A stretch of DNA of 64,000 bases from a bacterium. Lineage in GTDB: Bacteria; Patescibacteriota; Minisyncoccia; Phycocordibacterales; Phycocordibacteraceae. This document shows, piece after piece, positions 7,498 through 64,000 of the stretch (positions are counted from its first letter, which is position 1; each line of letters begins with the position of its first letter). The notes below the pieces were generated by a model. It ran no database searches, was not told the origin of the DNA, and worked only from the letters and a program-made list of their open reading frames with translations. Position numbers and translations under genes: made by a program. The stretch spans positions 704,001-768,000 of the forward strand of contig JBBCGK010000001.1 in assembly GCA_037200965.1 (NCBI GenBank). The letters run 5' to 3'.

Positions 7498-7509
7498 GAG
7501 TAGTTACAT

Positions 7510-23250: not shown

Positions 23251-23258
23251 AAATAATT

Positions 23259-25807: not shown

Positions 25808-25886
25808 CTGCTCAACTCCTCTGTTAGATTTTCAGGGAACACAGCGCCTAAAGTGTAACAGTGTACATAACATATGTCAATACCCG

Positions 25887-40189: not shown

Positions 40190-40195
40190 CACACT

Positions 40196-40579: not shown

Positions 40580-40586
40580 CGCCGCC

Positions 40587-41645: not shown

Positions 41646-41648
41646 ACC

Positions 41649-42854: not shown

Positions 42855-42953
42855 GCTTTTTATCCACAGGGTGCTTACTTATTTGCGCCGCGCTCTGTAC
42901 AATGATGGGAACGGCCATTCTTATTACTAAGCCGCATATCCATTTTTATCACC

Positions 42954-43430: not shown

Positions 43431-43475
43431 CATTTCTTAAAGAAAAGAGCAGCAAACGGCCTCAAGAGAGGCCGT

Positions 43476-44267
43476 TTGCGCGTTATACTTGACTCCGTGG
43501 AAGTTCTTCTCCCCATCTTTTTCTTCTGTCTCGGCGCGATCATCGCGAGCTTTATGGGCGTTGTCGTCGAGCGGATCAATACCGGGGGATCGTGGGTCGG
43601 CGGCCGTTCCCGCTGCGATGCGTGCGGGAAAACGCTTCGTGCGTTCGATATCGTTCCGGTTCTTTCGTACGCTGCGGCGCGCGGGCGCTGCCGGATGTGC
43701 GGCACGCGCGTTTCCTGGTACGGAAGCGCATCCGAAATAGTTCTCGGAACGCTGTTCGTTCTCGCATATCTCAAGCTCGGCCTCTCAAACGGACTTCCGG
43801 TCTTCCTGTTCCTTCTTTCGTCCCTGCTCGCGACCGTGCTCTATGACCTCCGTCATATGTTCGTCCCGCGGCCGTTTTTCCTCGCGGTAGCGGGAAGCGC
43901 GCTCGTATTCGCCGTACTGGTTGCGCCTTCAGCCATGATGCTTGGCGCATGGCTTCTTGGCGCGACCGCCATCGGTCTCGCGTTCTTCCTCCTGTTCTTC
44001 CTTTCCGGCGGGCGCGCCATGGGGCTCGGGGACGCACCGATAGCGCTTTCGCTCTCGCTTGCGGCCGGTTCCGCAGCGCTTTCCGGCCTCATCTTTTCCT
44101 TCTGGATCGGCGCGGTTGTCGGCATAGGGCTCTTGGTGCTTGTGCCGCGTACGCGTAGAATGGGGGTCGAGGTGCCTTTCGTCCCGTTTCTCGCCGCCGG
44201 CTTCCTCCTCGCCTACTTCACCACATGGGAACCCTTTTCGATCATCGCGTCGTTGCTCGGTACGTAA
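43476..44267 (+). CDS. pilD: prepilin peptidase PilD (A24 family)
   Basis: Zn-ribbon CDACG...CRMCG, eight TM helices, catalytic Asp in GLGDAP. Confidence 0.85.
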   Translation: MRVILDSVEVLLPIFFFCLGAIIASFMGVVVERINTGGSWVGGRSRCDACGKTLRAFDIVPVLSYAAARGRCRMCGTRVSWYGSASEIVLGTLFVLAYLKLGLSNGLPVFLFLLSSLLATVLYDLRHMFVPRPFFLAVAGSALVFAVLVAPSAMMLGAWLLGATAIGLAFFLLFFLSGGRAMGLGDAPIALSLSLAAGSAALSGLIFSFWIGAVVGIGLLVLVPRTRRMGVEVPFVPFLAAGFLLAYFTTWEPFSIIASLLGT

Positions 44268-44950
44268 CCGGCATAGCCCGTGCCCGCGGCTTCACGCTGA
44301 TCGAGATGCTCGCGGTGCTCGCGATCATCGTCATCATCACCGCGATCGCGTTTACCGGCCAGAGCATCTTCAACCGGACGCTTACGCTCGCGAACACCGC
44401 TTATAACGTCGCGCTTTCGATACGCCAGGCGGAAAACTACGGCATCGCGAGCCGCACGTTCGGGTCGGTGCGAAACGCGGGGTACGGCGTGCGCTTTGAG
44501 GCGGCGGTCAAAAACGCGTACTATTTCTATGCCGACGTGAATCCGGTCCCGGGCATCTCCGGCAACTGCCACTGCGCGGACACGAATTGCGCCGCGCTCC
44601 CGGACGCGAAGCCCGGGAACTGCGTCTATGACGCGTCGTACGGGACGCCCGTAAGAAGCGAACTCGTGAGCCAGTATACCTTCGGTTCCGGCATCAGCGT
44701 CAAGGACTTCTGCGGCACGGCCGCAAGCGGCGGCGCAACACACTGCGCGGCGGCGGCTCCAAACGACCTCCGGGCGCTCGATATCGTCTTCGTGCGGCCG
44801 AACACGCAGGTGACGCTTACCGCGACCCAGAATAACGGCACCCGCCTGCCGCTCTCGCAGGCAACCGTTTACCTTGGCGCCGGTACCGGGCAGCGCTGCG
44901 TGACCGTGAGCGCGATCGGCCAGGTGTCGGTGCCTCTTGCCTGCCCATGA
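44225..44950 (+). CDS. minor pilin / pseudopilin
   Basis: GFTLIEMLAVLAIIVII prepilin motif. There is a long leader from ATG 44225, so the true start is uncertain. Confidence 0.6.
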   Translation: MGTLFDHRVVARYVTGIARARGFTLIEMLAVLAIIVIITAIAFTGQSIFNRTLTLANTAYNVALSIRQAENYGIASRTFGSVRNAGYGVRFEAAVKNAYYFYADVNPVPGISGNCHCADTNCAALPDAKPGNCVYDASYGTPVRSELVSQYTFGSGISVKDFCGTAASGGATHCAAAAPNDLRALDIVFVRPNTQVTLTATQNNGTRLPLSQATVYLGAGTGQRCVTVSAIGQVSVPLACP

Positions 44951-45471
44951 TGACTTCCCGCACCCGGGGCTACACGCTCCTTGAAATGATCGTCGCCGTC
45001 GCGATTTTCGCGGTGGTGATGCTTCTTGCAAGCGGCGCGTACTACACCCTTATCGCGCTCGCGCGCGACGCGCGCGCGACCACGAACGCCGTCAACACGC
45101 TCTATTTCGCGGTCGAGGACATGACCCGCTCGATACGCACGGGCACCCAGTACTGCACGACGGGCTGCTTTCCCTCCTCCTTTTCTTTCGTCGACGACGA
45201 GAACCGGACCGTCACGTACAGCAAGAACGGGACGACCTTGTACCGGAGCGTCGCGGGAGCGGGCGGGACGGCGCTCACCGGCGTACTTACCGATCCCAAC
45301 GTGACGATTACCAAACTCGATTTCAGCCTTGCGAACCTGGGCGCGTTCCCGCAGCCGAGAGTCCGCATCATCATCCAGGGATCGGTCGAGACGGGTCCGG
45401 GAAAGACGCAGTCCTTTTCGCTTGAGACAAGCGCGACCCAGCGCACGCTTGAGGCCGGCAGCGGACTATAG
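44947..45471 (+). CDS. minor pilin / pseudopilin
   Basis: MMTSRTRGYTLLEMIVAVAIFAVV. Confidence 0.65.
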   Translation: MMTSRTRGYTLLEMIVAVAIFAVVMLLASGAYYTLIALARDARATTNAVNTLYFAVEDMTRSIRTGTQYCTTGCFPSSFSFVDDENRTVTYSKNGTTLYRSVAGAGGTALTGVLTDPNVTITKLDFSLANLGAFPQPRVRIIIQGSVETGPGKTQSFSLETSATQRTLEAGSGL

Positions 45472-45473
45472 CC

Positions 45474-45964
45474 ATGAAAGCCTTCACGCTCGTCGAAACC
45501 CTGGTCGCCGTCACCATTCTCACGATCGCCATCGTGGGCCCGTACTCGTCCGCCCAGCATTCGCTCATCGCCGCGCTTGCCGCGCGGGATCAACTGACGG
45601 GCTCGACGCTCGCGGAAGAGGGGGTCGAATACGTGCGCAGCGTCCGCGACAGCAACTATTTCCTCGGCGAGCCGTGGCTTGAAAACCTCGACGCCTGCAC
45701 GCCGGGGCCCTGCGTGATCGATCCCACCGACAACACGGAAAGCGGGGTCATAAAGCCTTTGACACTTGACGCGAACGGCGTCTACAGCCAGCGTGCGGTC
45801 TCGGCGGCGAACAAGGCGACGATCTTCACGCGGACCGTGAGCCTTACGCCGATACCCGACGACGCCGAGAATCCGACGGAGGTGCTCGTCACGGTTACGG
45901 TAAGCTGGAAGGAGCACGGCACGCCCTTTAGTGCGAAGATATTCGCGCACCTCACGAACTGGCA

Positions 45965-45968
<4 letters not shown>
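45474..45968 (+). CDS. minor pilin / pseudopilin
   Basis: MKAFTLVETLVAVTILTIAIVG. Confidence 0.65.
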
Positions 45969-48500
<2,532 letters not shown>

Positions 48501-49176: not shown

Positions 49177-49470
49177 ATGGCGACGAAGGAAGACGTGCAA
49201 AAGCTCGCAAGCCTTGCCCGCATCAGGGTGGTCGAGGAGGAACTTCAGAAATTCACCGAAGAATTCGACTCCATTCTCGCGTACGTGGGGAAGCTCGAGG
49301 AGCTTGCGATCGATACGAAAGGGGCGCAGGGGCTTCCGGCGCTCCGGAACGTATTTCGCGAAGACGGCGAACCGCACGAGTCCGGGGCGTACACCGGAAA
49401 GCTTGTCGAGGCATTTCCCGGGAAGGAGGGCAATCTGCTTTCCGTAAAGCAGATCATCACGCATGACTAA
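49177..49470 (+). CDS. gatC: Asp-tRNA(Asn)/Glu-tRNA(Gln) amidotransferase subunit C
   Basis: MATKEDVQKLASLARIRVVEEELQKFTEEFDSILAYVGKLEEL. Length 97 aa. Overlaps gatA. Confidence 0.85.
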   Translation: MATKEDVQKLASLARIRVVEEELQKFTEEFDSILAYVGKLEELAIDTKGAQGLPALRNVFREDGEPHESGAYTGKLVEAFPGKEGNLLSVKQIITHD

Positions 49471-50884
49471 GCCGAACGAACTTTCGATAACGGAAGCCGC
49501 GCGCGCTTTGCGCGCCGGGGAATTCTCCGTGCGCGAACTCTGGGATGCGTGCGCCTTAGCCGCGCGCGAAAGGAACCCGGAGCTCAATGCCTATCTCGAA
49601 TTGTTTGAAGCGGACGAGGAAGCGATAGCGTCCGCGCAAAAGCGCATCGACGAAGAAGGGGATGGGGCGCCCATGCTCTGCGGCATTCCGCTTGCGATCA
49701 AAGACAACATCATGATCGAGGGCAGGGTCGCGAGCGCCGCCTCGAAGATGCTTGAGAATCACCGGGCGGCGTATGACGCGACTGTTATCAAAAAGCTTAA
49801 GGAGGCGGGCGCGCTCTTCGTCGGCCGCACGAACCTCGATGAATTCGCGATGGGAAGCTCGACCGAGAGTTCCGCATTCGGCCCTTCAAGAAATCCCTAT
49901 GACACCTCGAGAGTTCCCGGCGGTTCTTCCGGCGGCTCGGCGAGCGCAGTCGCCGCGCATATGGCGCTCGGCGCGCTTGGGACCGACACTGGCGGATCCA
50001 TCCGGCAACCCGCGGCGCACACGGGCCTTGTCGGCCTCAAGCCGACTTACGGTGCCGTTTCCCGTTCCGGCCTCATCGCGCTCGGCAGCAGCCTCGACCA
50101 GGCCGGGCCTCTTGCGAAAACCGTTGCCGACGCGAAAGCGATCTTTGACGCGATTCGCGGCGCGGATCCGCTTGATGCGACCAGTGTCCCGAACGGACTG
50201 TATGCGCCGCGAGCGCTTAGCCAAACGCTTCGCATCGGCGTGCCGCGCCATCTGCTTGAATCGGGCATCGACGAAGACGTAAAGGCTTCTTTTGAGGCCG
50301 CCCTTGCCGTTCTCCAGAAAGCCGGGCATCAAATCGTCGACGTGTCGCTTCCGACGAGCTCCTATGCGCTTCCCGTGTATTACGTCATCATGCCAGCTGA
50401 GGCGTCGACCAATCTCGCCCGCTACGACGGCATACGGTACGGTCTTGCGAAACGCGGCGAGACGCTGCTTTCGGACTATATCGAAAGCCGGTCAAAAGGG
50501 TTCGGTCCCGAAACGCGCCGCCGCATTCTTCTTGGCACCTTCGTACTTTCTTCCGGTTATATCGACGCGTATTACCGCAAGGCGCATGCGGCACGCACGC
50601 TTCTGACTTCCGAATACGGCGCGGCGTTCGAGGCGTGCGATGTGATCGCGTTTCCGACGACGCCATCCCCGGCATTCAAATTCGGCGAGAAGAGCGATCC
50701 GGTTTCCATGTACCTTGAAGATATCTTTACGGTCACGGCGAACCTTACAGGCATGCCGGCAATTTCCGTCCCTATGGGGACCGTGGAGCGGGATGGAAAG
50801 GCCCTTCCGGTCGGCATCCAGTTCACCGCACCCAAGGGCGGGGAAGACTCCTTGTTTACAATCGGCGCGGCTGTGACCACATAG
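49463..50884 (+). CDS. gatA: Asp-tRNA(Asn)/Glu-tRNA(Gln) amidotransferase subunit A (amidase)
   Basis: Amidase signature GGSSGGSASAVAA and catalytic Ser/Lys context. Confidence 0.9.
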   Translation: MTKPNELSITEAARALRAGEFSVRELWDACALAARERNPELNAYLELFEADEEAIASAQKRIDEEGDGAPMLCGIPLAIKDNIMIEGRVASAASKMLENHRAAYDATVIKKLKEAGALFVGRTNLDEFAMGSSTESSAFGPSRNPYDTSRVPGGSSGGSASAVAAHMALGALGTDTGGSIRQPAAHTGLVGLKPTYGAVSRSGLIALGSSLDQAGPLAKTVADAKAIFDAIRGADPLDATSVPNGLYAPRALSQTLRIGVPRHLLESGIDEDVKASFEAALAVLQKAGHQIVDVSLPTSSYALPVYYVIMPAEASTNLARYDGIRYGLAKRGETLLSDYIESRSKGFGPETRRRILLGTFVLSSGYIDAYYRKAHAARTLLTSEYGAAFEACDVIAFPTTPSPAFKFGEKSDPVSMYLEDIFTVTANLTGMPAISVPMGTVERDGKALPVGIQFTAPKGGEDSLFTIGAAVTT

Positions 50885-51590: not shown

Positions 51591-51882
51591 AGCGGGGTAG
51601 AGGAGTGGTACCTCGGGAGGCTTGAATTATTCGGGCGTGCGCGCGAGCAATTGCGCGTAAGATCATCTGCCAAATTCGGTGAAACCCTCCTGCGCGAAAG
51701 CACAGACGGCAACGCCGAGCCAAGCCCTAAGAGCAATCGAAGGGAAGGTGTAGAGACTAGACGGTAGACATCCCGCAGGGGATGAAGGCATAGTCCAGAC
51801 CACAAATCATTCGTGCGAGAGCGGCGAAAGCCGTAGTGGTAGGCATAACCTCCAGACTCGGGTTCGAATCCCGACCCCGCAA
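51591..51882 (+). tRNA. tRNA(CAU) (Met/fMet/Ile2-type) interrupted by a ~221-nt group I intron in the anticodon loop
   Basis: 5' exon AGCGGGG-TA-GAGG-AGTGGTA-CCTC-G-GGAGG-CT (51591-51622). 3' exon CATAA-CCTCC-AGAC-TCGGG-TTCGAAT-CCCGA-CCCCGCA-A (51844-51882). The exons join to a normal cloverleaf with anticodon loop CUCAUAA. Confidence 0.65.
51623..51843 (+). ncRNA. group I intron (self-splicing ribozyme) within tRNA(CAU)
   Basis: The 5' exon ends in U and the intron ends in G. Core elements: P-like CAATTGCGCGTAAG; R-like GTGTAGAGACTAGAC (consensus GUUCAGAGACUA); S-like AAGGCATAGTCC (consensus AAGAUAUAGUCC). The P7 pairing is GACUA/UAGUC. Confidence 0.6.
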
Positions 51883-52640: not shown

Positions 52641-53482
52641 GGCATTCAGACTCAGTTGGCACAGCTCCCATACCATGGAAGCTATGTACACTCTCAAACA
52701 GATACCGAGCGAAGCGCAGATTCGGAAGTTCTTGCGCCGTACGCTCTTCGGCAAGAACGTGTTCTGTCCTTCGTGCCGGTCACGAAGGATCGAAAAGCAA
52801 CAGGAGCGGTATCGGTGCCGCACGTGCCGCATCCGCTTCTCCCTCACCTCGCACACCTGGCTCTCGAATCTGAAGCTCCCCCTCGAGCAGTGGTGGGTGC
52901 TGCTCTGGTGCTGGACCATACAAGAGCCGGTACGCCAAGCCGTCACGCTCTCTGGCCTTCCGGAACGCACGGTCAGGCGTTGGTATGCCACCTTCAGGCT
53001 CCATTTGCCCCAGGAAACCCATGTGCTCGAACGTATCGTCCAAATGGACGAAGCGTACTTCAAAAACGCCGCGCTCGTCATGGCCAAGCAGAAAGGTACG
53101 AGAAAGCTCGCCTTCGAGGTATTCCACGGCAGGTACCCAACCAAGACTGATGCCGTCTCATTCCTGTTCGAGCATGTGGCGCCGGGAAGCGAGCTCTGGA
53201 CCGATGGCGGGTCGATATACAAGAACATCAGCCAACGCTGGCCGGTGTCGCACCAGCGAGATATTCACTCCAAATTCGAGTTCGAGCACACCTCTGAGAT
53301 CGAGGGAATGTTCGGGGTATACCGCACCTTCGTGCGCAGGATGTATCATCATCACTGGAGCGAGAACTTGGAGGAATACGTGAGGGAATTCTGCTTCAGA
53401 TTTTCCTCGCCGGAAATCTTCAATTCGCCCCGTATTTACTTAACGAAATCACTCACGCTTGTGCCAACTTGTTCTTAATACC
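52641..53482 (+). mobile_element. IS1595-family insertion sequence (approximate ends)
   Basis: Imperfect terminal inverted repeats containing AGTTGGCACA / TGTGCCAACT. Flanked by the direct repeat CCGATGGTGG (52631-52640 and 53483-53492). Confidence 0.55.
52675..53478 (+). CDS. IS1595-family (ISXO2-like) transposase
   Basis: N-terminal Zn-ribbon CPSC...CRTC, then the DDE region (DEAYF... / ...ELWTDGGSIY...). Length 267 aa. Confidence 0.75.
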   Translation: MEAMYTLKQIPSEAQIRKFLRRTLFGKNVFCPSCRSRRIEKQQERYRCRTCRIRFSLTSHTWLSNLKLPLEQWWVLLWCWTIQEPVRQAVTLSGLPERTVRRWYATFRLHLPQETHVLERIVQMDEAYFKNAALVMAKQKGTRKLAFEVFHGRYPTKTDAVSFLFEHVAPGSELWTDGGSIYKNISQRWPVSHQRDIHSKFEFEHTSEIEGMFGVYRTFVRRMYHHHWSENLEEYVREFCFRFSSPEIFNSPRIYLTKSLTLVPTCS

Positions 53483-53830
53483 CCGATGGTGGTTCCATAC
53501 CGGCCCGTCTCGGTCGTCTGCAAAGAGATCGAAGGTCTTCTGGAAGGCAGGTAGCTTCATATGTTGAACAGTGGGCGGAAGAGCGGCACACAGAGTGCCG
53601 CTCTTTTCCTTTGCATGTCGTCACTAAGCCAGGGGACATGACATCAAGGGGAGCCCCTCTCTCGTTTTTCGAGCATCCTGTGCGTTGGCACAGAACAGAG
53701 CATCAAGACAGGGCATTCCTGAAAAGGGTATCTGTGGCGTATACTGTGGCTACTTAATGCGGGTGCGTTAAGGGCCGGGTTGCGACGGCGTGGAAGCCGT
53801 TATTCACGTTAGCAACTTACCTTCTGCACT

Positions 53831-54289
53831 ATGAACGATTCCATGGGGATGATGGTCGGCGGCGCCATGATGCTGCCCTCCAAGAATATCGTCGAGAATG
53901 CGATGATGGCGAACAACGTCACGACGCTCGTCGCCGCCGTCAAAGCGGCGGGGCTCGCCGAGACGCTTTCCGGTGCCGGGCCCTTTACCGTCTTTGCTCC
54001 CACAAACGATGCGTTCGCGAAACTGCCCGCGGGTACCGTCGAAACGCTGCTCATGCCGGAAAACAAGGAACGGCTGGTTGGCATTCTAACGTACCATGTC
54101 GTGCCGGGCTCCTGGATGGCGGGCTCCCTTGCCGAAGGGGAACAGAAAGTCAAAACGGTGAACGGCAAGGAGCTCACGATCACCAAAAAGGGCGGGACAG
54201 TGTGGGTAAACGAAGCGATGGTAGAGATGGCGGACATCGTTTCTTCAAACGGCGTTACCCACCTTATCGACACGGTTCTGATGCCGTAA
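53831..54289 (+). CDS. fasciclin (FAS1) domain protein
   Basis: FAS1 motifs TVFAPTNDAFAKL and YHVVPG. Length 152 aa. Confidence 0.8.
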   Translation: MNDSMGMMVGGAMMLPSKNIVENAMMANNVTTLVAAVKAAGLAETLSGAGPFTVFAPTNDAFAKLPAGTVETLLMPENKERLVGILTYHVVPGSWMAGSLAEGEQKVKTVNGKELTITKKGGTVWVNEAMVEMADIVSSNGVTHLIDTVLMP

Positions 54290-54433
54290 CTTTCCGGCTC
54301 GTCCTCCGGATACCGCGAAACCGCCGTCAGGCGGTTTCGTCGCGTTACGAAAGAGCCGCTATCGCTTTCACTGCAATCCCGTACGGATATGCCCCGTACC
54401 AGGCATCTGTCTGATAGATGGTCATACGCATAT

Positions 54434-56401
54434 TTACTTTCGATCAGGGAACCGTATCCGCATTCTCGTGCCTTCGCCGAGCTCGCTTTCGACGGCGATC
54501 GATCCGCCCTGCTGTTCGATGATGCGCTTCGCGAACGCGAGACCGAGGCCGGTGCCTCGCGCGTCATAGGGTGTGTTCTTGCCGCGGTAAAAGCGCTCGA
54601 AAACGCGTTCCCGGTCCTCCGGCAGGATGCCGATGCCCGTATCGGATATGGAGAGCTCGGTTCCGCCGTCTGCCCGCGCGAGCGCGATCCGTATTTCTTT
54701 ACGGCCTTCGGCGCGCATGTACTTGACCGCGTTGCTCGCGATGTTCATGACCGCCTCGCGCAGCCGTTTTGCGTTTCCGCGGACGACGATGCCGGGCTCG
54801 ATGGCGCTCGTGACCTCTATGCCGCGCGGCGCGGCGATGATAACGAGTTCCTCCGCGATCTCCGCGCACAACTGCGTAAGCGGGACGTCTTCCGTCCCCT
54901 CGCTTGCGGCCTGGTCGAGGTTCGCGAGCGACAGGAGGTCGTAGATGAAGTTCGAGAGCGCCGAGAGCGACTGCTCGAAGCCCGCAACCTCGCCGTCGTT
55001 CACGAGAATGCGCTTCAGCCGTTCGATCTTGGTCTGGAAAATGGCGAGCGGGGTCTGGAGATTATGGGAAATATCGTTAAGCATCTGCCGCTGGCTTTCC
55101 TGCGCCCGGCGCAGTTCCTCGGTACGCTCCGCGACTTTTTGCTCGAGCTCTTCGGCATGCCGCTTGACCTGCTCGTACAGGCGGGCGCGCGAAAGCGCGG
55201 TCGCGGCCTGGTACGCGAACGTGGCGAGCAGTTTGGCGTCCTCGCTCGTGTACGCGTCTCCCGATCGTTTCTCGCCGATGCGTATGGCGCCGACGGTCGC
55301 GCCTTCGAACGCTATCGGCACGTACATCGTTCTTCCGCTCGGGTCTTCTTCATCCGCGTCCGAATCGGGAACGGAGATGCGGACGGACGATGCGCGGAAG
55401 ATGGTAATAAGCGCGGCCTCGGCCCTGGCGGTGAGTTCGCCGAAGTCGACGCTCGTGTAGAGCACCTCGCTCAGGTTCCGGAGCGCCTCGGCATAGTCGT
55501 AGGTGTCCTTGAAGAAAATCCTGTCGGTCATCCTGCGGAAGCAGCGCTCAATGAGGGGAGCGCTGAAGATGCCGACCGCGGCCGTGACGGTGCCGCCAAG
55601 GAATGCGGCGGTACCCGACTGCGCCCCGAGCGAGCCGAATGCGGTGATGGCCACGAGATAGAACCCGGTGATAAGACCGAGAAGCGCGCTGTAGATAAGA
55701 CCGCGCTGGATGACGACGCGGATATCCATGAGCTGATGCCGGACGATGGCGTAGGCCGTAAGGGCGACGAACGCGATCGAGGAGGCCGGTCCAAGCAGGT
55801 TGAGCTGGTACATGCCGAGATACGGGAAAATGAGATCGAACACGATGAAGCTTCCGGCAAAAATGAATATGCCGACCGCGAGGTAGAGGATCTGCATCCG
55901 CTGCTTCCCGCGCGCAACGGAGAGATTCCGGCTCAAAAACCACAGCGTCGCGGACACGTGTCCGATATTGGCGAGCGCGTAGACGGGAAAGAGGGGCCCG
56001 AGAATCGCGTGGATGATACCGTTTTCGTCGACGACGATGCCGAGTATGTAGAGGCCGAACGGCAGAAGGAGCGCCGTACACGCAAGCGGAAGGAAGAACC
56101 AGGCGAATCGGAATGATACGGGTTCCCGGGAAGCGAAGGTCCGCGCGAAGAGCGTCATGCCAAAGAGCATCACGATCCCGCCGCCAAGCGCCATCTTGTC
56201 GAACGCGAAGTTGTGCGTGACATAGAGAAGCGAAATACCGGACATCCAGAGCGCCGTGCCAAGCACGAACGCGAAGAAGGACATGTTCACGACGTTTTTC
56301 GGGTTCTTGGAGAGCACGAGCGCGCCGATAGAGAGATTGACCGCGGCGATGGCGAACAGGATCGCCTGTTCAAGACCGAGCGTAATCACGGGCAGATGCA
56401 T
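54434..56401 (-). CDS. sensor histidine kinase with large multi-TM N-terminal sensor domain
   Basis: About 8 TM helices, H-box ISHNLQTPL, N/G boxes (ASNAVKY, GTGLGLAF). The start was moved to the internal ATG 56401, behind an AT-rich promoter-like stretch. Confidence 0.8.
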   Translation of the reverse strand: MHLPVITLGLEQAILFAIAAVNLSIGALVLSKNPKNVVNMSFFAFVLGTALWMSGISLLYVTHNFAFDKMALGGGIVMLFGMTLFARTFASREPVSFRFAWFFLPLACTALLLPFGLYILGIVVDENGIIHAILGPLFPVYALANIGHVSATLWFLSRNLSVARGKQRMQILYLAVGIFIFAGSFIVFDLIFPYLGMYQLNLLGPASSIAFVALTAYAIVRHQLMDIRVVIQRGLIYSALLGLITGFYLVAITAFGSLGAQSGTAAFLGGTVTAAVGIFSAPLIERCFRRMTDRIFFKDTYDYAEALRNLSEVLYTSVDFGELTARAEAALITIFRASSVRISVPDSDADEEDPSGRTMYVPIAFEGATVGAIRIGEKRSGDAYTSEDAKLLATFAYQAATALSRARLYEQVKRHAEELEQKVAERTEELRRAQESQRQMLNDISHNLQTPLAIFQTKIERLKRILVNDGEVAGFEQSLSALSNFIYDLLSLANLDQAASEGTEDVPLTQLCAEIAEELVIIAAPRGIEVTSAIEPGIVVRGNAKRLREAVMNIASNAVKYMRAEGRKEIRIALARADGGTELSISDTGIGILPEDRERVFERFYRGKNTPYDARGTGLGLAFAKRIIEQQGGSIAVESELGEGTRMRIRFPDRK

Positions 56402-56479
56402 ATGGTTCTTATATATTCGCACGCTTTGAGGCAAAAAAATGCGCCCCGGGAATCTCCGTGGGCGCAAGTACGCATGTGG

Positions 56480-57034
56480 TTATTCCCCGAACGCCTGCCG
56501 GAGTTCCATGAGATAGAGCGTCGGCACGGGAGGCTCGGTGAAGTAGAGCATCCCCGCTTCGCCGACCATGGCAAGCACTTCGTCCGCGCGGAGCCGGGCA
56601 TTCCCGATTTCCCGGCAGACGATGCCAAGTTCGCCAAGACGCTTGACGCTGTACGGCTTCGCTTCGATGAGCATGTGCCGCTTGCCAAGCTCGTACGCGA
56701 CGCGCATGGCCGTACGGACCAGGAGATTCGATACTCCCGGCGCCGTCGCGATCCATCTCGTCCCCTGCACGATGTACGGACGGTCGAAGGGATACGGCGC
56801 GTCCTTCGGATCGAATGCGTAACGGCCTTCGATAGGGAAGGGAGAAGCGTCGGCCATTCCTTCAAGCACGATACTTCCGACGATCGCGCCCTTGGCGCGG
56901 GCAATGAAGATAAGCCCGCGCGTCGGGGGAGGCTCGCATTTAAAGCGCTCGCGCATCACCGGCTCGATATAGCCGATCGCTTCGAGGCGCTCCGTTTCGG
57001 AAAGGGCGAGGGAGACTTCAGCGCCGGACTGCAC
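56480..57034 (-). CDS. hypothetical protein (possible GNAT-fold acyltransferase)
   Basis: 184 aa. Overlaps the upstream E1-like gene by 17 nt, so it is probably co-transcribed. The fold assignment is weak. Confidence 0.4.
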   Translation of the reverse strand: MQSGAEVSLALSETERLEAIGYIEPVMRERFKCEPPPTRGLIFIARAKGAIVGSIVLEGMADASPFPIEGRYAFDPKDAPYPFDRPYIVQGTRWIATAPGVSNLLVRTAMRVAYELGKRHMLIEAKPYSVKRLGELGIVCREIGNARLRADEVLAMVGEAGMLYFTEPPVPTLYLMELRQAFGE

Positions 57035-58058
57035 GGGGCACCCACCCTTCCGAGACGACCTTCGCCTGCATGGTTGCGGCGTCGAACTGCATATATCCGG
57101 CCATCGGAGGTACGTGCGCGATGTTGCGCCTGACGCCCGAATTCCGGAGCAAATGCAGGAGGACGCGGTTCGCGAGAAAACCCGCCGCCATTATCGGATT
57201 CGTAGCGATGATCGGCGCTTTCCCTTCCTCGAAGATCCGGCGGTAGAAGGCCGCGGCGTTCGCTTCCGCTGTCTCCGGGCTGTATTCCGGAAGATCCGGA
57301 ACCACCGCTCCGAGAATCGCTTCCGCGATCATGCGCCCCGCCTCCGTATCGCCCGCGCCAGCGCTCGCGCGCAGCCGCTTCGCTTCTTCGTAGCCGAATC
57401 CGACCGCTTCTTCCATCGTCATGCTCTGCGGCGTGTAGAGGAAGAGGTTAGTGCAGAATCCGACCGTGTTGCAGTTGAAGAGCGGTACACCCTCCGCCCT
57501 TCCCCGCTCATGGAGCAGGATGCGCGCGTCAAGCGTGAGGAGCTCGATCTCGTCGAGCACCACGTCGCAGCCCGCAAGGAAGTGATCGACGGTCGTCTCG
57601 TCGATTCCCTGCGGATAGACGACGACCGTCGTGTCGTCGGTGACTTCGCGCGCATCGCGCGCGGTCGTGAGCGCCTTCGACATGCCGACCGTCCGGCGCT
57701 TCGCGCCGAACTGCCGGTTGATATTCGAGACATCGAACGTCTCGCAATCGGCCGTACGCACTTCGCCGACGCCCGCCCGCAGGAAGGCTGGCAGAAGCAG
57801 CCCTCCCATCCCCCCGCAGCCGGCGATGCCGACGACGGCGTCCTGGAGCATGGCCTGCTCGTTTCTCGTGATCCAACCCCAGTTCCGGTCGGTGCGGTTG
57901 CGGTAGTACTCTTCGTCTGCGTCTTTCGGAAGCAGCCGAAGCACGCTTGCTTGCGGCAGATCTTCCGGGATGTCCATCCCCTCGATAACCGTAAGCGAAT
58001 TGTGTTGCCCAGACATCAGATAGCTCCTTAGGTTTGCGATACGGCCCTGACAGAACAA
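57018..58058 (-). CDS. ThiF/MoeB/E1-like adenylyltransferase with ~75-aa N-terminal extension (MccB-like architecture)
   Basis: Rossmann motif VVGIAGCGGMGG and a downstream D-x-x-NINRQ motif. An AAGGAG ribosome-binding site lies 7 nt before the second ATG (58016), so the true start may be there. Confidence 0.7.
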   Translation of the reverse strand: MFCQGRIANLRSYLMSGQHNSLTVIEGMDIPEDLPQASVLRLLPKDADEEYYRNRTDRNWGWITRNEQAMLQDAVVGIAGCGGMGGLLLPAFLRAGVGEVRTADCETFDVSNINRQFGAKRRTVGMSKALTTARDAREVTDDTTVVVYPQGIDETTVDHFLAGCDVVLDEIELLTLDARILLHERGRAEGVPLFNCNTVGFCTNLFLYTPQSMTMEEAVGFGYEEAKRLRASAGAGDTEAGRMIAEAILGAVVPDLPEYSPETAEANAAAFYRRIFEEGKAPIIATNPIMAAGFLANRVLLHLLRNSGVRRNIAHVPPMAGYMQFDAATMQAKVVSEGWVPRAVRR

Positions 58059-58154
58059 GACCGCTCCCGATCATAGGAAGCGCGCGCTTCACGCCCGTTC
58101 AAGCGCCGCTCACGTTCCGCTTCGCTTGAAGTGAACGGTGGATGATTCGTGCAT

Positions 58155-58185
58155 AAAAATGCGTCCCGCCGAAGCGGGACGCAAA
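58155..58185 (-). terminator. rho-independent terminator after the methyltransferase gene (GCGTCCCGC-TTCG-GCGGGACGC + ATTTTTAT)
   Basis: 9-bp GC stem with a T-run on the minus strand, directly after the stop at 58201. Confidence 0.6.
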
Positions 58186-58200
58186 GAAGGGCGTATGCGG

Positions 58201-58896
58201 TCATTTCGTTCCGGTAACGATAAGCGCATACGGCTGGACGCTTGCCATCCGCAGAATCGCGACTTCGTCCTCGTCGCGTGCGGTTTCGAGCAGGCTGGTG
58301 AGCGCGCTTCGCGGCGCGGTTACGGGAAGAGCGCGTGCGTTTAAGAAGCCGCATGCGCCGAAGAGTTTTTCAAGACTCTCTTTCGGACGCGGGTAAAGCC
58401 GAAACGCTTCCCCGAGCGTCGAGAACGTTAGCCCGCCCGGCACTTCGTTCAAAGCGAAGAAGCATGCGGCAAGGACCGTACCTCCGGGGCGTAGCACGCG
58501 CCACTGCTCCGCAACCGCGGCTCCTTGTTCCTCGTACGGCAGGTAGTTGAGCGAATGGAAAGAAACCGCCGCATCGAAGGACTGGTCGGCATAGGGAAGC
58601 GCGAGCATCGAACCTTCCATAAGCGGGAGCCCGCGCGCCGTTCCGCGCGCGATGAAGCTTGGCGAGAGGTCGATGCCGCGGCAGATGGCCCCCGTTTTTT
58701 CGAGCGCCTCGACGAGACCGCCCGAACCGCAGCCGACATCGAGCAACGTTTTTCCGGCAAGCGAACCGAGCCGTTCCGTAAGCATGGCCGCGATATCCGG
58801 ATACGCGATCCTGTCCTTGAACGCCGCGGTCTGCCGGTCGTAGCGTTCTCCCGCGCGCTCGTAGGCATCAAGCGCGTCTTGTTCATATGCACGCAT
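58201..58896 (-). CDS. class I SAM-dependent methyltransferase
   Basis: Motif I LLDVGCGSGGL and post-I acidic residue GIDLS. Length 231 aa. Confidence 0.8.
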   Translation of the reverse strand: MRAYEQDALDAYERAGERYDRQTAAFKDRIAYPDIAAMLTERLGSLAGKTLLDVGCGSGGLVEALEKTGAICRGIDLSPSFIARGTARGLPLMEGSMLALPYADQSFDAAVSFHSLNYLPYEEQGAAVAEQWRVLRPGGTVLAACFFALNEVPGGLTFSTLGEAFRLYPRPKESLEKLFGACGFLNARALPVTAPRSALTSLLETARDEDEVAILRMASVQPYALIVTGTK

Positions 58897-59007
58897 CGCA
58901 CATCACTCCTCAGGTTTGGATGGTGAACAATCTGCTCCAAGCCTATGCAGTGCGGCATGAAGAAAACGTGCGCTTCGAATGAGGCGTGCGTAAAGTTCCG
59001 TTCAATA

Positions 59008-59679
59008 TCAGCGCGCTTCGATCTTGTAGCCTCTGCCGGGCACGGTGCGGATGAGCCGGTCCTTTCCGGTGTCGCCGATTTTCTTCCGGAGGCTCAGGAT
59101 GTGCGATTCGATGGTGTTCGAGAAGATGTCGATATTCATGTCCCAGACATGCTCGAGGATCATGCCGCGGGAGAGCACGATGCCTTCGTTTTTCATGAGG
59201 TATTCGAGCAGCATAAACTCCTTGCGCGTGAGGGTGATCGATTTCTTCCCGCGCGTCACCGTGCAGCCCTTGGTGTCGAGCGTCAGGTCTTCCACCCTGA
59301 GGACTTCCTTTTCGATGGCCGCCGGACGCCGCAGAAGCGCGCGGATACGGGCTAGAAGTTCCTCGAGCGCGAAAGGCTTTGCGAGATAATCGTCCGCCCC
59401 GGCATTCAGAAGGGCGATTTTCCGGGTCGTGTCGGTTTTGACCGAGACCACGAGTATCGGCATGGTCTTGCCGCTCGCGCGTATCTCGGTGCATACCTGG
59501 AGCCCTTCCTTCTTCGGCAGCATGTTGTCGAGCACGACGAGATCGTAGTCGTTTATCCGGCCGAGATACGAACCTTTCTCGCCGTCTTCGGCGATGTCGA
59601 CCGCGAAATACTCGGACTCGAGCGAGTCCTTGAGAAAGCGGGCTATTTTCGGTTCATCTTCGACAACGAGTATTCTCAT
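59008..59679 (-). CDS. OmpR-family two-component response regulator
   Basis: Receiver (MRILVVEDE...DLVVLDNMLP) plus a C-terminal winged-helix trans_reg_C (LTRKEFMLLEYL...GYKI). Confidence 0.9.
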   Translation of the reverse strand: MRILVVEDEPKIARFLKDSLESEYFAVDIAEDGEKGSYLGRINDYDLVVLDNMLPKKEGLQVCTEIRASGKTMPILVVSVKTDTTRKIALLNAGADDYLAKPFALEELLARIRALLRRPAAIEKEVLRVEDLTLDTKGCTVTRGKKSITLTRKEFMLLEYLMKNEGIVLSRGMILEHVWDMNIDIFSNTIESHILSLRKKIGDTGKDRLIRTVPGRGYKIEAR

Positions 59680-60025
59680 GCCAGGAGGTAGTTAGGTCCC
59701 GTCTTCCTCTTTATCTCGCCATCATCAGACATTGGATAGTATTTTATCACGGCGACGGTACGCTTCATATCGCCCGCTGCGTTTACGCCTCGTTTATGCG
59801 CTGATACCGGGCTCGCTCGCGCAACACCTGCCTCGAAAGAGGACGGATAGAAGCGAGCCCGATATCACCGCGCAAGCGACGCATACTCGTACCATATAGT
59901 CCGCGTTCTCCTATGGCAACTCTTAATGGTGTGGACTCGCGTATTCGCGCTCGCCGTCCTGCTATACTGAAAACCGTTCTGGTGTTGCGTACCAGCTCTA
60001 TTCCGGAGAACGGCATCCGTCGTTC

Positions 60026-63000
60026 ATGCTCTTCCTCCTTGTACGCACACTCATAAGACCGCATACGTCCCTTCGCGCCTTTCCTTCCTTGGCAGGGAAG
60101 GGCTTCCTGTTCTTGTTCGTGCTTTGGTCCTGTTCGATAAGCGCGCTGCCTGCATACGCGGCATGGGACGGACAGCCCTATGCGCCGGGCGCAACGCTTG
60201 ACCCGGAGTGCGGGCCGAGCGACTCTAATTGCAAGACGCTTGCGAGCGCGGACGCGACGACGCTTGAAGGCAGGTCCGGAAGCTATTACCTTGCCAACTC
60301 CTTCTCGACGACCTCGGCCGCGTATTTCCTTTCTGACAATCCGGGGCTCTCGTTCGCGACCACCAGTTCTGACTATTGGCTCGCGCATCGGTCCACGTCC
60401 GACCTTCCGGAAGGCTCGCGCCTCTACTACACCGATGCCCGCGCGGACGCGCGCATTCTTGCGACAACTACTCTTGCGAATATCATCTCGCTTCCGGGCT
60501 TGTCTTTGTCCGCGTCGCAGCTTACTGGCTTCGGTATTCCTTTCTACAATTTCTTTCACGCGACGACGACCGATGCGCTCGCGGAAGGTTCCCTGCATCG
60601 CTACTACAGCGACGTGCTCGCCCGCGGAGCGCTTGGCGTATCTGCCGGGGCTCTCGCGTATGACAGCGGCACGGGAATCCTTTCGGTTGCGGGCGGATAT
60701 ACGATTCCTTTATCAGCGTCCACGACGGAGTGGGGCGAGGCATATGACAACCGCATCACGTCGGCCTCGGCGCCTCTCACGATCGCGAACCGCGAGATAA
60801 GCCTCGGCATTGTTGATGCGGGGCACGGCGGCACCGGCCTCGCCTCGTACAATCCGGGCGCACTTCTGTATGCCGATGCCGACGGAAACCTCACGACGCT
60901 TTCGCCCGGTTCTTCCGGTACCGTGCTTAAGATCGCGGGCGGCGTCCCGACCTGGGGCACGGATCTTTCAAGCGGCGGCGGGGGAGGAGCCGTAGCCTGG
61001 GCGACGACATCCGACAGCCTCGCGATCTATCCGATGGACAGCACGAACGTCGTCATCGTGGGCGCAAGCGCGACATCGTCGGCGACGAGCGTCTTTGAAG
61101 TGCACGGGAGGTCGTATTTCACGACCAATGTCGGCATCGGCACGACTTCTCCGCTCTCGGCGCTTTCCGTCGCGGGGAGCGGCTTCTTCACCGGCAACCT
61201 GACTTCGGCCAATATCACCGCCACCGGAACGCTTTCAGTCTCGGGTGCTGGCACGTCGACGTTTGCCGGGCCGTTCTTAGCAGGGAATCTTGCGGTCGCC
61301 GGACTTCCCGCGGGCCTTATAAAGGCCGGGGCGGGCGGGTATCTCCGGGGCGCCGTCGCGGGAACGGATTATTTCGATCCTGCCGCGTTCGGTTCAACTT
61401 TCTATTCTTTTTTTCACGCGACGACGACCGATGCGCTTGCCGAAGGTTCGGTGCATAAGTATTGGAGCGATACGCTCTTCGACAACCGCCTCTCCGCGAC
61501 CACGTCGCTTCCGGGCCTCTCTTCCATCGGTTCGTATACCGGGCTCATCGGCGCGAACAACGGTTCCATGTACCAAATCGCCACTTCGACCAACTTCGTG
61601 ACATCGATCGCGGCCGCATACCCGCTCTCCGTTTCCGGACCAGCCGGGGCGGTGACAATCTCGACCGCGCTCGCTACCACCACATTCCAGCACTCATACG
61701 GTTCCGCGCAGATCGGACAAATCATCCTTGCCACTTCAAGCGCGGCAACGAGTAACGGCATCACGGTGGGGCAGACCATCACGAACTCCGGCGGCGTCTT
61801 CACGTTCGCTCCGGCGGTATCCGTATCGAACATCCCCAATGCCGCCCTGCAGAATTCCGCCGTCACCGTCAACGGCACCCTGATCCCGCTTGGCGGCTCG
61901 GGTACTGTCGCCGCCGCTTCTTCCACGCTCCTTGGAGATAACAATACTTTCTCGGGCGGCAATACGTTTTTGAGCACCATCACCGGCTCCGTTTCTGGCA
62001 ATGCCGGCACCGTTACGAACGGCGTATACACGACTACTTTCGGCGGCCTTTTCGACAACCGCCTCTCCGCGACCACGTCGCTTCCGGGCCTTACGGCGGT
62101 TTCGTCCGGCCTCACGGGCGTCCTTAAGGCGGCGGCGGGCTCTCTCTCGGCGGCGGCACCGGGGATCGATTTCGAAAATCCGCTTTCGTTCCTCTATCCG
62201 CTCGCGCGCACCGCAAACAGCGTAAGCCTTGCCTTCGGGACGACAACTTCAAACACTTGGGGAGGAACCCAGACTTTCACCAACAACCCGATACTCGGCA
62301 CTCTCACCGGTCTCTTCTACGGAAACAACGGATCGCTTGCGGCGACGGCGACATCCTCCGTCACCAGCGGCACCGGCATCGGCTTTTCAGGCACGCCGGG
62401 AGCGCTTGTCGGCGGTACTCCGCTTACGATTACGAATACCGGCGTGACGTCGAATATTGCCGGGACCGGCATCAGCGTCTCGGGCGCGACCGGCGCCGTT
62501 ACGATAAGCGCGGCGAACGTGCCGAACAGCGCGCTTGAGAACTCGACGATCGGGCTTGCTTCGGGCGACTCCTCCCTTACGGTTTCCGGCTCGCCCGCCT
62601 CTCTTGGAGGCTCGCTTTCCGCCTCCCTTAACACCGCGCATCCGAATACGTTCACCGCGCTTCAGCAATTCAGCGCAAATGCGTCGACGACGGGAATCTC
62701 TTCTTCGTATGCGTCCTCGACCAAAGCCTTCCTTGGAAGCCTGTCGATAGGGAATCTGACCGGCATCCTGCGCGCGGCCGGGGGTGCCGTATCGGCCTCG
62801 CTCGTGTCCCTCGCTTCCGACGTGACCGGAGTGCTCGGCGTTATAAACGGCGGGACGGGATGGGATTCGATACAGTCCGGCAGCATCCCGTACGGAAACG
62901 GCGCCGGGGCGCTCGCCACCACGAGCCCGGGAACCAACGGGCAGACGCTCGCGCTTGTCGCCGGAGTTCCGGCCTGGATCGCGACGACAACCGCGGGCAC

Positions 63001-64000
63001 CGGCCTTACGTATTCCGGCGGCAGCTTCAATGTGAATACGGCGCAGAATGTCGCGAAGCTTTCGAACCTCACGGGGAACGGATTCGTCAAAACTATAAAC
63101 GGCGACGGCACGCTTTCGGTCGATACCAATACCTACCTCGCCTCCATTGGTCCCGCAGGACAAAGCCAGAGCGGTCCTGCGGTCGCCATTGCCTCCTCGA
63201 CCGATTCTGCGACCGGCCTTATCTCGGGCGTCGTGATAACCGGAAGCGCGAATACGCTTACCTGGAAGGCCGTGCTCTCCGGCGTCTTGAGTGCCGCAAA
63301 CGGCGGCACCGGATCGACGACGCTTTCGGGAATCCTCAAAGGAAACGGCACGGGAGTGCTTATGACCGCGGTTCCGGGAACCGACTATCAGGCGGCGGGG
63401 AACTATCTCACCGCGCTTACCGGTGACATCTCCGCGTCGGGTCCGGGTTCCGCCGCCGCGACGCTCGCGACCGTGAACGCGGATACGGGGTCGTTCGGGG
63501 GTTCGACCGCCATCCCGACTTTTGTCGTAAACGGGAAAGGGCTCGTCACATCCGCGGGCACCGCGGCGGTTATCGCGCCCGCGGGAACGCTCACCGGAAC
63601 CGTACTTGCTTCGAACATCCTCGCTTCTTCGCTTACATCCGTCGGAACGCTCGGCACGCTCTCCGTTTCCGGCCAGGCTTCGCTTGCGGGCGCGAGCTCG
63701 ACCGCCTTTTCCTCGTCCTATGCGTCTTCGACCAGTGCGTTCTTCGGAAACCTGTCCGTCGGAAGTCTTTCGGGAATACTGCGCGCGACCGCCGGAGCGG
63801 TCTCCGCGGGCGCGGTGAATCTTGCCTCGGAAATATCCGGGATGCTCGGCGTCGCAAACGGCGGCACGGGCGCGGGCTCGTTTGCGGCAGGCTCCCTCAT
63901 CTACGGAAACGGTACGGGCCCGCTTCAGAGCGCCGCGACCTCGTCCGTTTCAAACGGCGCTGGCATCTCGGTCTCGGGCGCCGCCGCCGTGGTCGGGAGC
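60026..64000 (+). CDS. giant (>1,320 aa) secreted Gly/Thr/Ser/Ala-rich repetitive surface protein, 3'-partial (runs off window)
   Basis: The open frame runs from the in-frame stop at 59924-59926 to the window end. First ATG is 60026, with a signal-peptide-like N-terminus (…FLFLFVLWSCSISALPAYA|AWDG). Internal protein repeats: FFHATTTDALAEGS(L/V)H(R/K)Y(Y/W)SD x2, FDNRLSATTSLPGL x2, ...SSSYASST.AF.G.LS.G.L.GILRA..GAVSA....LAS...G.LGV.NGGTG x2. It is missing from the ORF track because no stop lies within the window. Confidence 0.75.
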   Translation, partial: MLFLLVRTLIRPHTSLRAFPSLAGKGFLFLFVLWSCSISALPAYAAWDGQPYAPGATLDPECGPSDSNCKTLASADATTLEGRSGSYYLANSFSTTSAAYFLSDNPGLSFATTSSDYWLAHRSTSDLPEGSRLYYTDARADARILATTTLANIISLPGLSLSASQLTGFGIPFYNFFHATTTDALAEGSLHRYYSDVLARGALGVSAGALAYDSGTGILSVAGGYTIPLSASTTEWGEAYDNRITSASAPLTIANREISLGIVDAGHGGTGLASYNPGALLYADADGNLTTLSPGSSGTVLKIAGGVPTWGTDLSSGGGGGAVAWATTSDSLAIYPMDSTNVVIVGASATSSATSVFEVHGRSYFTTNVGIGTTSPLSALSVAGSGFFTGNLTSANITATGTLSVSGAGTSTFAGPFLAGNLAVAGLPAGLIKAGAGGYLRGAVAGTDYFDPAAFGSTFYSFFHATTTDALAEGSVHKYWSDTLFDNRLSATTSLPGLSSIGSYTGLIGANNGSMYQIATSTNFVTSIAAAYPLSVSGPAGAVTISTALATTTFQHSYGSAQIGQIILATSSAATSNGITVGQTITNSGGVFTFAPAVSVSNIPNAALQNSAVTVNGTLIPLGGSGTVAAASSTLLGDNNTFSGGNTFLSTITGSVSGNAGTVTNGVYTTTFGGLFDNRLSATTSLPGLTAVSSGLTGVLKAAAGSLSAAAPGIDFENPLSFLYPLARTANSVSLAFGTTTSNTWGGTQTFTNNPILGTLTGLFYGNNGSLAATATSSVTSGTGIGFSGTPGALVGGTPLTITNTGVTSNIAGTGISVSGATGAVTISAANVPNSALENSTIGLASGDSSLTVSGSPASLGGSLSASLNTAHPNTFTALQQFSANASTTGISSSYASSTKAFLGSLSIGNLTGILRAAGGAVSASLVSLASDVTGVLGVINGGTGWDSIQSGSIPYGNGAGALATTSPGTNGQTLALVAGVPAWIATTTAGTGLTYSGGSFNVNTAQNVAKLSNLTGNGFVKTINGDGTLSVDTNTYLASIGPAGQSQSGPAVAIASSTDSATGLISGVVITGSANTLTWKAVLSGVLSAANGGTGSTTLSGILKGNGTGVLMTAVPGTDYQAAGNYLTALTGDISASGPGSAAATLATVNADTGSFGGSTAIPTFVVNGKGLVTSAGTAAVIAPAGTLTGTVLASNILASSLTSVGTLGTLSVSGQASLAGASSTAFSSSYASSTSAFFGNLSVGSLSGILRATAGAVSAGAVNLASEISGMLGVANGGTGAGSFAAGSLIYGNGTGPLQSAATSSVSNGAGISVSGAAAVVGS

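Follow-up and report, generated by a model that had tools for sequence, protein, structure and literature searches.

A giant repetitive gene at a patescibacterial locus and its relation to mosaic proteins with tail-fibre-like modules

The giant gene and the architecture of its product

The DNA examined here (the window) is a 64,000-nt stretch of a patescibacterial contig (JBBCGK010000001.1 of assembly GCA_037200965.1, positions 704,001–768,000), and our subject is the 5' part of a very large gene, hereafter the giant gene, which runs on the forward strand from base 60026 to the window edge. Read in frame, an upstream TAA is followed by 1,358 stop-free codons up to base 64000, a run with a chance probability of P ~2e-16 given the regional base composition, and the remaining five frames over the same region contain 11–57 stops each. 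The ATG at 60026 is the first start, there being no ATG, GTG or TTG between the TAA and this position; later candidates are TTG 60089, TTG 60113 and GTG 60119. GC content at the three codon positions (GC1/2/3) was 0.54/0.61/0.725 over the 1,325 codons from 60026. A first-pass annotation made from the letters alone had likewise described a frame of ~4 kb open from the stop at 59924, with more than 1,320 codons of high GC3, and had remarked that the gene was missing from the list of open reading frames (ORFs), the sole cause of which is that it runs off the window end, as such ORFs were not listed. The antisense pseudo-ORFs to which it had pointed are also present, and their GC3 is of the non-coding type (0.52 in the reverse-strand ORF at 59783–60598, against 0.70–0.80 in neighbouring genes). 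Because of the 1,358 stop-free codons, the coding-type GC3 and the protein homologues described below, the giant gene is a real coding gene. The features of its visible part are as follows, in window coordinates and in amino acid (aa) positions counted from the first ATG.

59924–59926, forward strand: in-frame TAA, upstream limit of the open frame
60026–64000, forward strand: 5' part of the giant gene, of which 1,325 codons counted from the first ATG precede the window edge; the stop lies outside the window
60026–60160, forward strand: predicted Sec-type signal peptide (aa 1–45), read from the sequence by the -3/-1 rule
60161–60235, forward strand: conserved mature N-terminus with a Cys-x6-Cys loop (AWDGQPYAPGATLDPECGPSDSNCK), from alignment with relatives
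60242–60529, forward strand: module A (aa 73–168), with LEGxSGSYYL, FSTTSAxYFL/ATTSSDYWL and T-D-L-x-EGS-x-LYYTDARADARI units
60530–60805, forward strand: module B copy 1 (aa 169–260), with FFHATTTDALAEGS at aa 176
60806–61000, forward strand: module C copy 1 (aa 261–325), GGTG...GxLLYAD...G.VLK..GG.P.W
61001–61345, forward strand: module D (aa 326–440), a G5 linker and a AWATTSDSLAIYP...VFEVHGRSYF..NVGIGTTSP block
61388–61591, forward strand: module B copy 2 (aa 455–522), with FFHATTTDALAEGS at aa 462 and FDNRLSATTSLPGL at aa 485
62048–62091, forward strand: second FDNRLSATTSLPGL unit (aa 676), 44 nt, 98 % identical to 61475–61518
62096–62335, forward strand: module H (aa 691–770), ...ENPLSFLYPLARTANSVSLAFGTTTSNTWGGTQTF, with 99 copies in 41 relatives
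62666–63025, forward strand: module J copy 1 (aa 881–1000), a ~65-aa unit SSSYASSTKAFLG...NGGTG followed by a C-type module
63296–63685, forward strand: modules L and M (aa 1091–1220), ...LKGNGTG...GTDYQAAGNY / LTGD...ATLATVN...GSFG...P.F.VNGKGLVT...
63686–64000, forward strand: module J copy 2 (aa 1221–1325), truncated at the window edge

A second, independent assembly of this organism, built from short reads (contig L004), corresponds to window positions 53344–60314 (6,971 nt) at 99.986 % identity, with one mismatch; it ends ~290 nt into the giant gene and, at the other end, within an insertion sequence (IS) element. A break inside the giant gene is typical where the modules of a gene recur at other places in the genome. 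Searches with the neighbouring response regulator and methyltransferase retrieved only short contigs ending within the giant gene (L004 and L005), and an exact 44-nt query from the window end had no match in the genome or metagenome contig collections. On both contigs (L004 2–532 and L005 3–542, equal to window 59783–60313 on the reverse strand) an antisense ORF of 176–179 aa is annotated as a gene, a mis-call in view of the assembly break and the GC3 of 0.52. The lengths of relatives suggest that the full giant protein may be two- to fivefold longer than the part visible here.

The visible protein is acidic (pI 4.6) and dominated by four residues (G 14.3, S 14.0, A 14.0 and T 12.7 %; 55 % together). 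Its only hydrophobic segment among 1,325 aa is aa 26–42 (GFLFLFVLWSCSISALP), the h-region of what appears to be a canonical Sec signal peptide, with positive charges in the n-region (R7, R11, R17, K25) and a P-A-Y-A c-region whose A-Y-A/A-W site predicts cleavage before A46. This lone N-terminal hydrophobic segment, the positive n-region and the AXA motif bear out the signal-peptide-like start at 60026 that had been noticed at first reading; a start at TTG 60089 would yield a shorter, equally valid signal peptide (MAGKGFLF...). Just past the predicted cut, AWDGQPYAPGATLDPECGPSDSNC aligns to the first mature residues of four relatives (P0026, P0027, P0040, P0047) that have ordinary signal peptides directly before the shared motif, P-Y-x-P-G-x-T-L-D-P-x-C-x-P-x-x-x-x-C. 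Seven residues are invariant across the five family members (P54, T57, L58, P60, C62, P64 and C69), and C62 and C69 are the sole cysteines of the visible mature protein. The alignment with the relatives' mature starts thus establishes the N-terminus and outlines a small, conserved head with a Cys loop.

We divided the giant protein into 13 modules of 40–120 aa and counted each among 230 retrieved relatives. Module C was the most widespread (367 copies in 156 of the 230), module J had 328 copies in 124, and all modules except aa 771–880 recurred widely. That stretch (62336–62665) had 2 matches in 2 proteins only and is nearly unique to the giant protein; it may be an insert confined to this lineage or a specificity segment that evolves fast.

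The long internal repeats claimed in the first-pass annotation proved significant and form a denser network than it had described. Windowed self-comparison paired aa 884–987 with 1221–1325 (E 7e-23), 169–233 with 455–522 (E 4e-15), 261–319 with 935–999 (E 8e-13) and 484–557 with 675–754 (E 1e-12), besides ~20 further, weaker pairs. Each of the motifs originally quoted has two copies: FFHATTTDALAEGS (aa 176 and 462), FDNRLSATTSLPGL (aa 485 and 676) and SSSYASST... (aa 892 and 1229). Repeat copies were 42–57 % identical in protein and 50–61 % identical in DNA, with differing codons at 43–64 % of the conserved positions; apart from the 44-nt pair 62048–62091 and 61475–61518, the giant gene has no near-identical DNA repeat. 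Given this divergence and the differing codons, the repeats are old duplications under protein-level constraint. Assembly collapse, which had been raised as a possible source of the repeats, is ruled out by the divergence of the copies at the DNA level.

Relatives in Patescibacteria and in phages

A word-index search retrieved 205 homologues of the giant protein, and HMMER found 3,312 representative homologues at 50 % clustering, 223 of them below E 1e-30. Signal features and more than 3,300 relatives are therefore both present, where the first-pass annotation had allowed that there might be neither. The relatives were 1,000–7,275 aa long and nearly all from Parcubacteria, Paceibacterota, Kaiserbacteria and other Patescibacteria, a few being labelled Hyphomicrobium or Methylocystis. 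The closest, HVX90324.1 (P0121; 4,289 aa, Candidatus Paceibacterota), carries the NCBI name 'tail fiber domain-containing protein'; 'helix-turn-helix domain-containing protein' is the other NCBI name in use within the family. Whole-protein E-values were 1.9e-275 to P0121 and 1.3e-181 to P0001 (ABA06_04590, Parcubacteria bacterium C7867-001), with 14–39 matched stretches per relative.

Family members such as these two and MBI5456882.1 (Candidatus Kaiserbacteria, 4,629 aa) have a module set in common with the giant protein, at 43–64 % identity over 100–400-aa blocks, and are like it in composition, in phylum and in their chromosomal loci, at which contigs often break. They differ from it in module order and copy number, and aa 771–880 is nearly without counterpart among them. 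No collinear orthologue was found, as the best relatives (P0121, P0001, P0002 and P0122) differ in block order and copy number. The giant protein shows the traits of the family, namely multi-module similarity, more than 1,000 aa with repeats, G/S/T/A-rich composition and a place on a Patescibacteria chromosome. On sequence grounds, it is a typical member of a big, uncharacterised mosaic family of predicted Patescibacteria surface proteins. Paralogues of it elsewhere in the window were not found. One relative has two giant genes in tandem (L011 1–6364 and 7001–13663; >3,325 and 2,220 aa), which implies that such genes can take up a considerable part of a genome of such size.

Two kinds of N-terminus predominated among the 230 relatives: 84 were signal-peptide-like, and 59 had a cytoplasmic helix-turn-helix domain (HTH_17), a basic linker and one transmembrane helix (P0001, P0002, P0005, P0123 and P0128 among them). 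Many family members thus start with HTH_17 and a transmembrane helix, whereas the export or anchor element present in the giant protein is of the signal-peptide type. The HTH_17–transmembrane arrangement also occurred as a separate 132-aa protein overlapping the start of a signal-peptide-type fibre gene (L002 7606–8004), and as a 286-aa gene just upstream of a fibre gene (L001 8739–9599); an anchor gene of the HTH_17 type was not found in the window by tblastn at E<0.3. In the 59 fused relatives a DNA-binding domain would be tethered to a giant extracellular fibre.

At the other end, Peptidase_S74 was detected in 53 of the 230 relatives, 16–452 residues ahead of the C-terminus, and three of these (P0026, P0027 and P0040) combine it with the same N-terminal Cys-loop motif as the giant protein. 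Pfam found no Peptidase_S74 in the visible 1,325 aa of the giant protein, whose C-terminus lies past base 64000. A minority of relatives carry Pectate_lyase_3 (PF12708), Peptidase_G2 (PF11962), Gly_rich_2 or DUF5011. The seven other loci of relatives examined lay among housekeeping genes and were without phage genes.

A literature search for a described family returned only a one-sentence mention, in which large (>1500 aa) OD1 proteins with beta-sheet domains and internal repeats were taken as indicative of adhesins (Nelson & Stegen 2015, PMC4508563). The giant protein is an object of that class, from the same phylum, and the top word-index match, P0001, stems from a genome of that study; the sentence neither defines a family nor gives a module map, and it mentions no phage link and no N-terminal variants. 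The kind is thus already known from the 2015 mention and from NCBI tail-fibre names, though uncharacterised, and the giant gene is a further member.

Relatives were also encoded by three IMG/VR contigs. On phage contig L007, a 1,348-aa ORF that matches the PHROG families 'tail protein' and 'tail fiber protein' adjoins virion structural and minor tail genes, and aligned to aa 1126–1320 of the giant protein (E 8e-22), with the module M core ~60 % identical; modules from aa 1095–1317 recur in this tail protein. On phage contig L009, an ORF matching aa 1095–1152 comes after a gene with a tail-fibre N-terminal domain. Matches to cultured phages were weak: aa 106–224, a range that overlaps module A, matched the tail fibre of a Pelagibacter phage and a structural protein of a Synechococcus phage (E ~5e-4), module M matched at aa 1131–1190 the 'baseplate wedge initiator' of Pelagibacter phage HTVC008M (E 1e-5), modules L/M matched Limnohabitans phage DC31, and some module M copies had PHROG tail-fibre matches. 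Module J had no match among cultured phages.

Genomic neighbourhood and organism

The genes nearest the giant gene on its upstream side are cellular, and those that bear on it are listed here.

59680–60025: divergent intergenic region of 346 bp, between the response regulator (reverse strand) and the giant gene (forward strand)
59008–59679, reverse strand: OmpR-family response regulator, the divergent neighbour of the giant gene
54434–56467, reverse strand: GAF histidine kinase, cognate-looking, upstream of the giant gene
52675–53478, forward strand: IS1595-family transposase (DDE_Tnp_IS1595 and zinc ribbon), ~6.5 kb upstream of the giant gene

Other genes on the upstream side encode ThiF, a methyltransferase, LigA and GatA. 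The next-best matches of GatA (49463–50884), at 79–81 %, were Candidatus Paceibacterota, Patescibacteria group and Parcubacteria C7867. By GatA and by the relatives of the giant protein, the host is placed as a bacterium of the Paceibacterota/Parcubacteria, within the candidate phyla radiation (CPR). No phage genes were present in the 20 kb upstream of the giant gene, and its context is chromosomal, cellular and non-phage.

Both promoters presumably lie in the divergent intergenic region, on the forward strand of which no convincing sigma-70 site was found. The OmpR-family response regulator is a possible regulator of the giant gene. The gene order NUDIX, response regulator, histidine kinase, 455-aa protein, PAS protein and fibre gene was seen at two loci of relatives (L006 3250–7799 and L012 267–4792), and these two relatives carry the giant protein's N-terminal motif; four other loci examined lacked the response regulator/histidine kinase order. 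The adjacency of such genes to fibre genes could reflect regulation or chance.

Several other features of the window were recorded. The break of the L004 assembly within the IS1595 element suggests several genomic copies of that element. A type IV pilus-type block lies on the forward strand at 38426–46450, 14 kb upstream of the giant gene, with genes for a type II/IV secretion ATPase (PilB/PilT-type), PilC and the prepilin peptidase PilD in 40587–44267 (by Pfam, T2SSE ATPase at 40587, T2SSF PilC at 41649 and prepilin peptidase at 43476); a 587-aa ORF at 38426 and small ORFs at 42954 and 44225–46450 may encode a second ATPase and pilins. A group I intron (RF00028, 51614–51815) splits a tRNA gene in 51591–51880 (forward strand), which ARAGORN finds only after in-silico removal of the intron and calls Ser, Leu or Cys depending on the exact splice site. 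ARAGORN also called a tRNA-Ile with anticodon TAT (UAU) at 12384–12456 (forward strand); in most bacteria AUA is read via a lysidine-modified CAU tRNA. Two low-GC islands (4001–8000 and 22001–26000) had GC contents of 0.42–0.47 compared with ~0.60 elsewhere. The first ends ~150 bp ahead of the tmRNA gene (8152–8566), and the second begins right after a tRNA-Ser (22012–22101) and holds three co-directional ORFs (22156–24997), which suggests that it was acquired.

Proposed function and alternatives

Taken together, we consider it probable that the giant protein is a Sec-exported surface fibre for attachment, tail-fibre-like and probably trimeric. The protein would be exported by Sec and held at the cell envelope by its Cys-loop N-terminus or by an uncleaved signal anchor; three chains would then form a long rod, starting from the C-terminus and aided by an S74-type intramolecular chaperone encoded past the window, and the distal end would bind a ligand on the surface of a partner cell or of a substrate. 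Shuffling of modules would vary both reach and specificity. For the giant protein, signal-peptide cleavage, trimerisation, an S74 chaperone of its own, surface display and adhesion are what we infer from this analysis. The S74 domain (CIMCD, endosialidase) reportedly drives folding in the trimeric beta-helical fibres and spikes of phages, after which it cleaves itself off, and trimeric assembly is proposed here because S74 chaperones fold trimeric phage fibres.

The likeness to S74-chaperoned phage tail fibres and tailspikes, of which the coliphage K1F endosialidase and the T5 L-shaped tail fibre pb1 are examples, is in the mosaic, modular and G/S/T-rich build, in modules held in common with tail proteins of phage contigs, and in S74 (Pfam PF13884) standing at the equivalent C-terminal place in the relatives as in phage fibres. 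Unlike phage tail-fibre genes, the giant gene encodes a Sec signal peptide and is located on a cellular chromosome without virion genes, and its product is far longer than most tail fibres and has no sequence match to a solved fibre. The first-pass annotation had likened the protein to fibrous adhesins or tail-fibre-like proteins. The tail-fibre half of that description is upheld by the shared modules, the C-terminal chaperone of the family and the NCBI name, without the backing of a match between the giant protein and a curated tail-fibre model, and the adhesin role and the forming of a fibre are proposals. It had further spoken of surface proteins as used by episymbiotic CPR cells, where the CPR assignment agrees with GatA and the relatives and the episymbiotic lifestyle is presumed.

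Trimeric autotransporters had also been named there, as a family to compare against, and no feature of theirs was found in the visible part by Pfam. Trimeric autotransporter adhesins of the YadA/BadA type are alike in concept only, being long, modular, likely-trimeric fibres whose length is set by repeat number. They were rejected for want of a YadA head, stalk or anchor domain in the visible part, the anchor position being outside the window. To our knowledge, trimeric autotransporters need an outer membrane, which is generally thought absent in CPR bacteria. Two-partner-secretion (TPS) filamentous haemagglutinin (FHA)/CdiA proteins were set aside in the same way, as Pfam found no TPS or FHA domain and the N-terminus is a plain signal peptide and Cys-loop. 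Repeats of LPXTG-type adhesins (Ig-like, Cna-B or similar) were also looked for, and Pfam found no known repeat domain in the visible part.

Several results weigh against the attachment-fibre interpretation. The visible 1,325 aa had no Pfam match at E<=1, no NCBIfam or PDB-sequence match and no significant match in PHROGs (best E 0.085). Profiles of aa 255–445, 70–262 and 1120–1215 had no real PDB match (a beta-lactamase at E 0.2 being noise), and members of the aa 255–445 alignment scanned singly against Pfam gave nothing significant. AlphaFold2 (AF2) monomers built on family alignments of 27 and 22 sequences were poor, with a mean predicted local distance difference test (pLDDT) score of 64 for aa 255–445, where the C module (~50 residues, modelled as a small beta unit of four strands) alone reached 77–80, and of 55 for aa 70–262. 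A Foldseek search of the AF2 model against the PDB found no match (best E 3). Given the poor monomers and the lack of a Foldseek match, a fibrous or trimeric fold is not demonstrated by the models; poor monomer models are expected for intertwined trimers, yet they are no evidence for them. S74 in the giant protein is an extrapolation from relatives, of which 53 of 230 show it and many others are truncated. Envelope retention through the N-terminus is an explicit topology in the HTH and transmembrane relatives and would need a signal anchor or Cys-loop docking here; were the signal peptide removed, no visible feature would account for retention of the protein on the cell. Finally, similarity to cultured phages is weak overall (E 1e-5 to 5e-3), and the abundant C, D and J modules were not found in the cultured-phage collection searched.

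A bolder account seems unlikely to us. It would make the family domesticated phage receptor-binding fibres in CPR membranes, trimeric and S74-folded, that swap modules with CPR phage tail fibres and set the host on which the cell docks; the HTH_17 fusion, the overlapping HTH_17 gene of L002 or, in that role here, the divergent OmpR-type two-component system could relay attachment to transcription.

We regard as quite unlikely that the visible repeats are the stalk of an enzyme- or effector-carrying fibre whose unseen C-terminus degrades or intoxicates the envelope of a partner, for attack or feeding. Some relatives do carry Pectate_lyase_3 or Peptidase_G2, which are typical of phage tailspike depolymerases, or Gly_rich_2 or DUF5011, and with relatives of up to 7,275 aa most of the protein may be unseen. 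Giant proteins of predatory bacteria have been tied to cell-wall degradation (bioRxiv 10.1101/2023.11.21.568195), which favours the same idea. However, no enzymatic or toxin domain was found in the visible 1,325 residues, and such domains occur in a small minority of relatives; a stalk of this kind would still be a fibre and is compatible with the attachment-fibre interpretation.

An S-layer or sheath subunit, forming a two-dimensional lattice instead of a projecting fibre, is in our view very unlikely. The signal peptide, the pI of 4.6, the near absence of Cys and the G/S/T/A-rich, beta-prone composition are all common in S-layer proteins, and CPR cells reportedly have S-layer-like envelopes. 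Yet neither an S-layer homology (SLH) domain nor any other S-layer anchoring or lattice domain was found by Pfam or NCBIfam, on which ground the S-layer candidate was rejected. The spread of lengths (1,000–7,275 aa) and the module shuffling suit variable-length fibres and not a lattice, the S74 chaperones of relatives point to trimeric fibres, and the second giant gene next to the relative at L011 suggests variable multi-copy genes in place of a single conserved lattice subunit.

That the protein acts on a particle, as a prophage tail fibre or as part of a virion or tailocin (a phage-tail-like particle), is highly improbable. It has in its favour the modules in common with tail proteins of L007 and L009, the S74 chaperones in relatives, the IS1595 transposase 6.5 kb upstream and a downstream side that falls outside the window. 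Virion tail fibres assemble in the cytoplasm and would not be expected to carry a Sec signal peptide; moreover, no phage genes lie in the 20 kb upstream or at the seven loci of relatives, and the fusion of 59 of the 230 relatives to HTH and a transmembrane anchor implies a cellular membrane topology. The signal peptide and the cellular context, with no tail-gene cluster in the 20 kb upstream, led us to reject a prophage tail fibre as such. A chance open frame or mis-assembled repeat is effectively refuted, for although high-GC DNA yields long spurious ORFs (an antisense frame is open for 520 codons) and short-read assemblies break at the locus, these are outweighed by the P of ~2e-16, the thousands of protein homologues, the divergent repeats with synonymous differences, and the L004 match, whose 6,971 nt take in the initial 290 nt of the gene.

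Taken by itself, the giant protein is a typical representative of a family that public annotation already shows. A large part of bacterial diversity falls within CPR/Patescibacteria, and those in culture grow attached to other cells; apart from the type IV pili of Saccharibacteria, we know of almost no recognition molecules of CPR. Since giant genes break short-read assemblies, and since cut contigs such as L004 and L005 attract antisense mis-calls, the family is under-represented and mostly 'partial' in databases. Giant1–5 of the small-genome symbiont Apilactobacillus kunkeei (PMC12863079) are giant extracellular proteins, by description comparable to the giant protein in that a reduced genome devotes a large share of its DNA to secreted surface proteins of several thousand residues, with repeat types that differ and no sequence relation to be expected. 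For a genome of ~1 Mb, at least 4 kb (up to 22 kb in relatives) spent on one gene for a putative exported fibre is a large investment in the surface, and the module map and phage link resolve it into concrete pieces: a Cys-loop N-terminus, widespread modules of 50–120 aa and a likely S74-chaperoned C-terminus.

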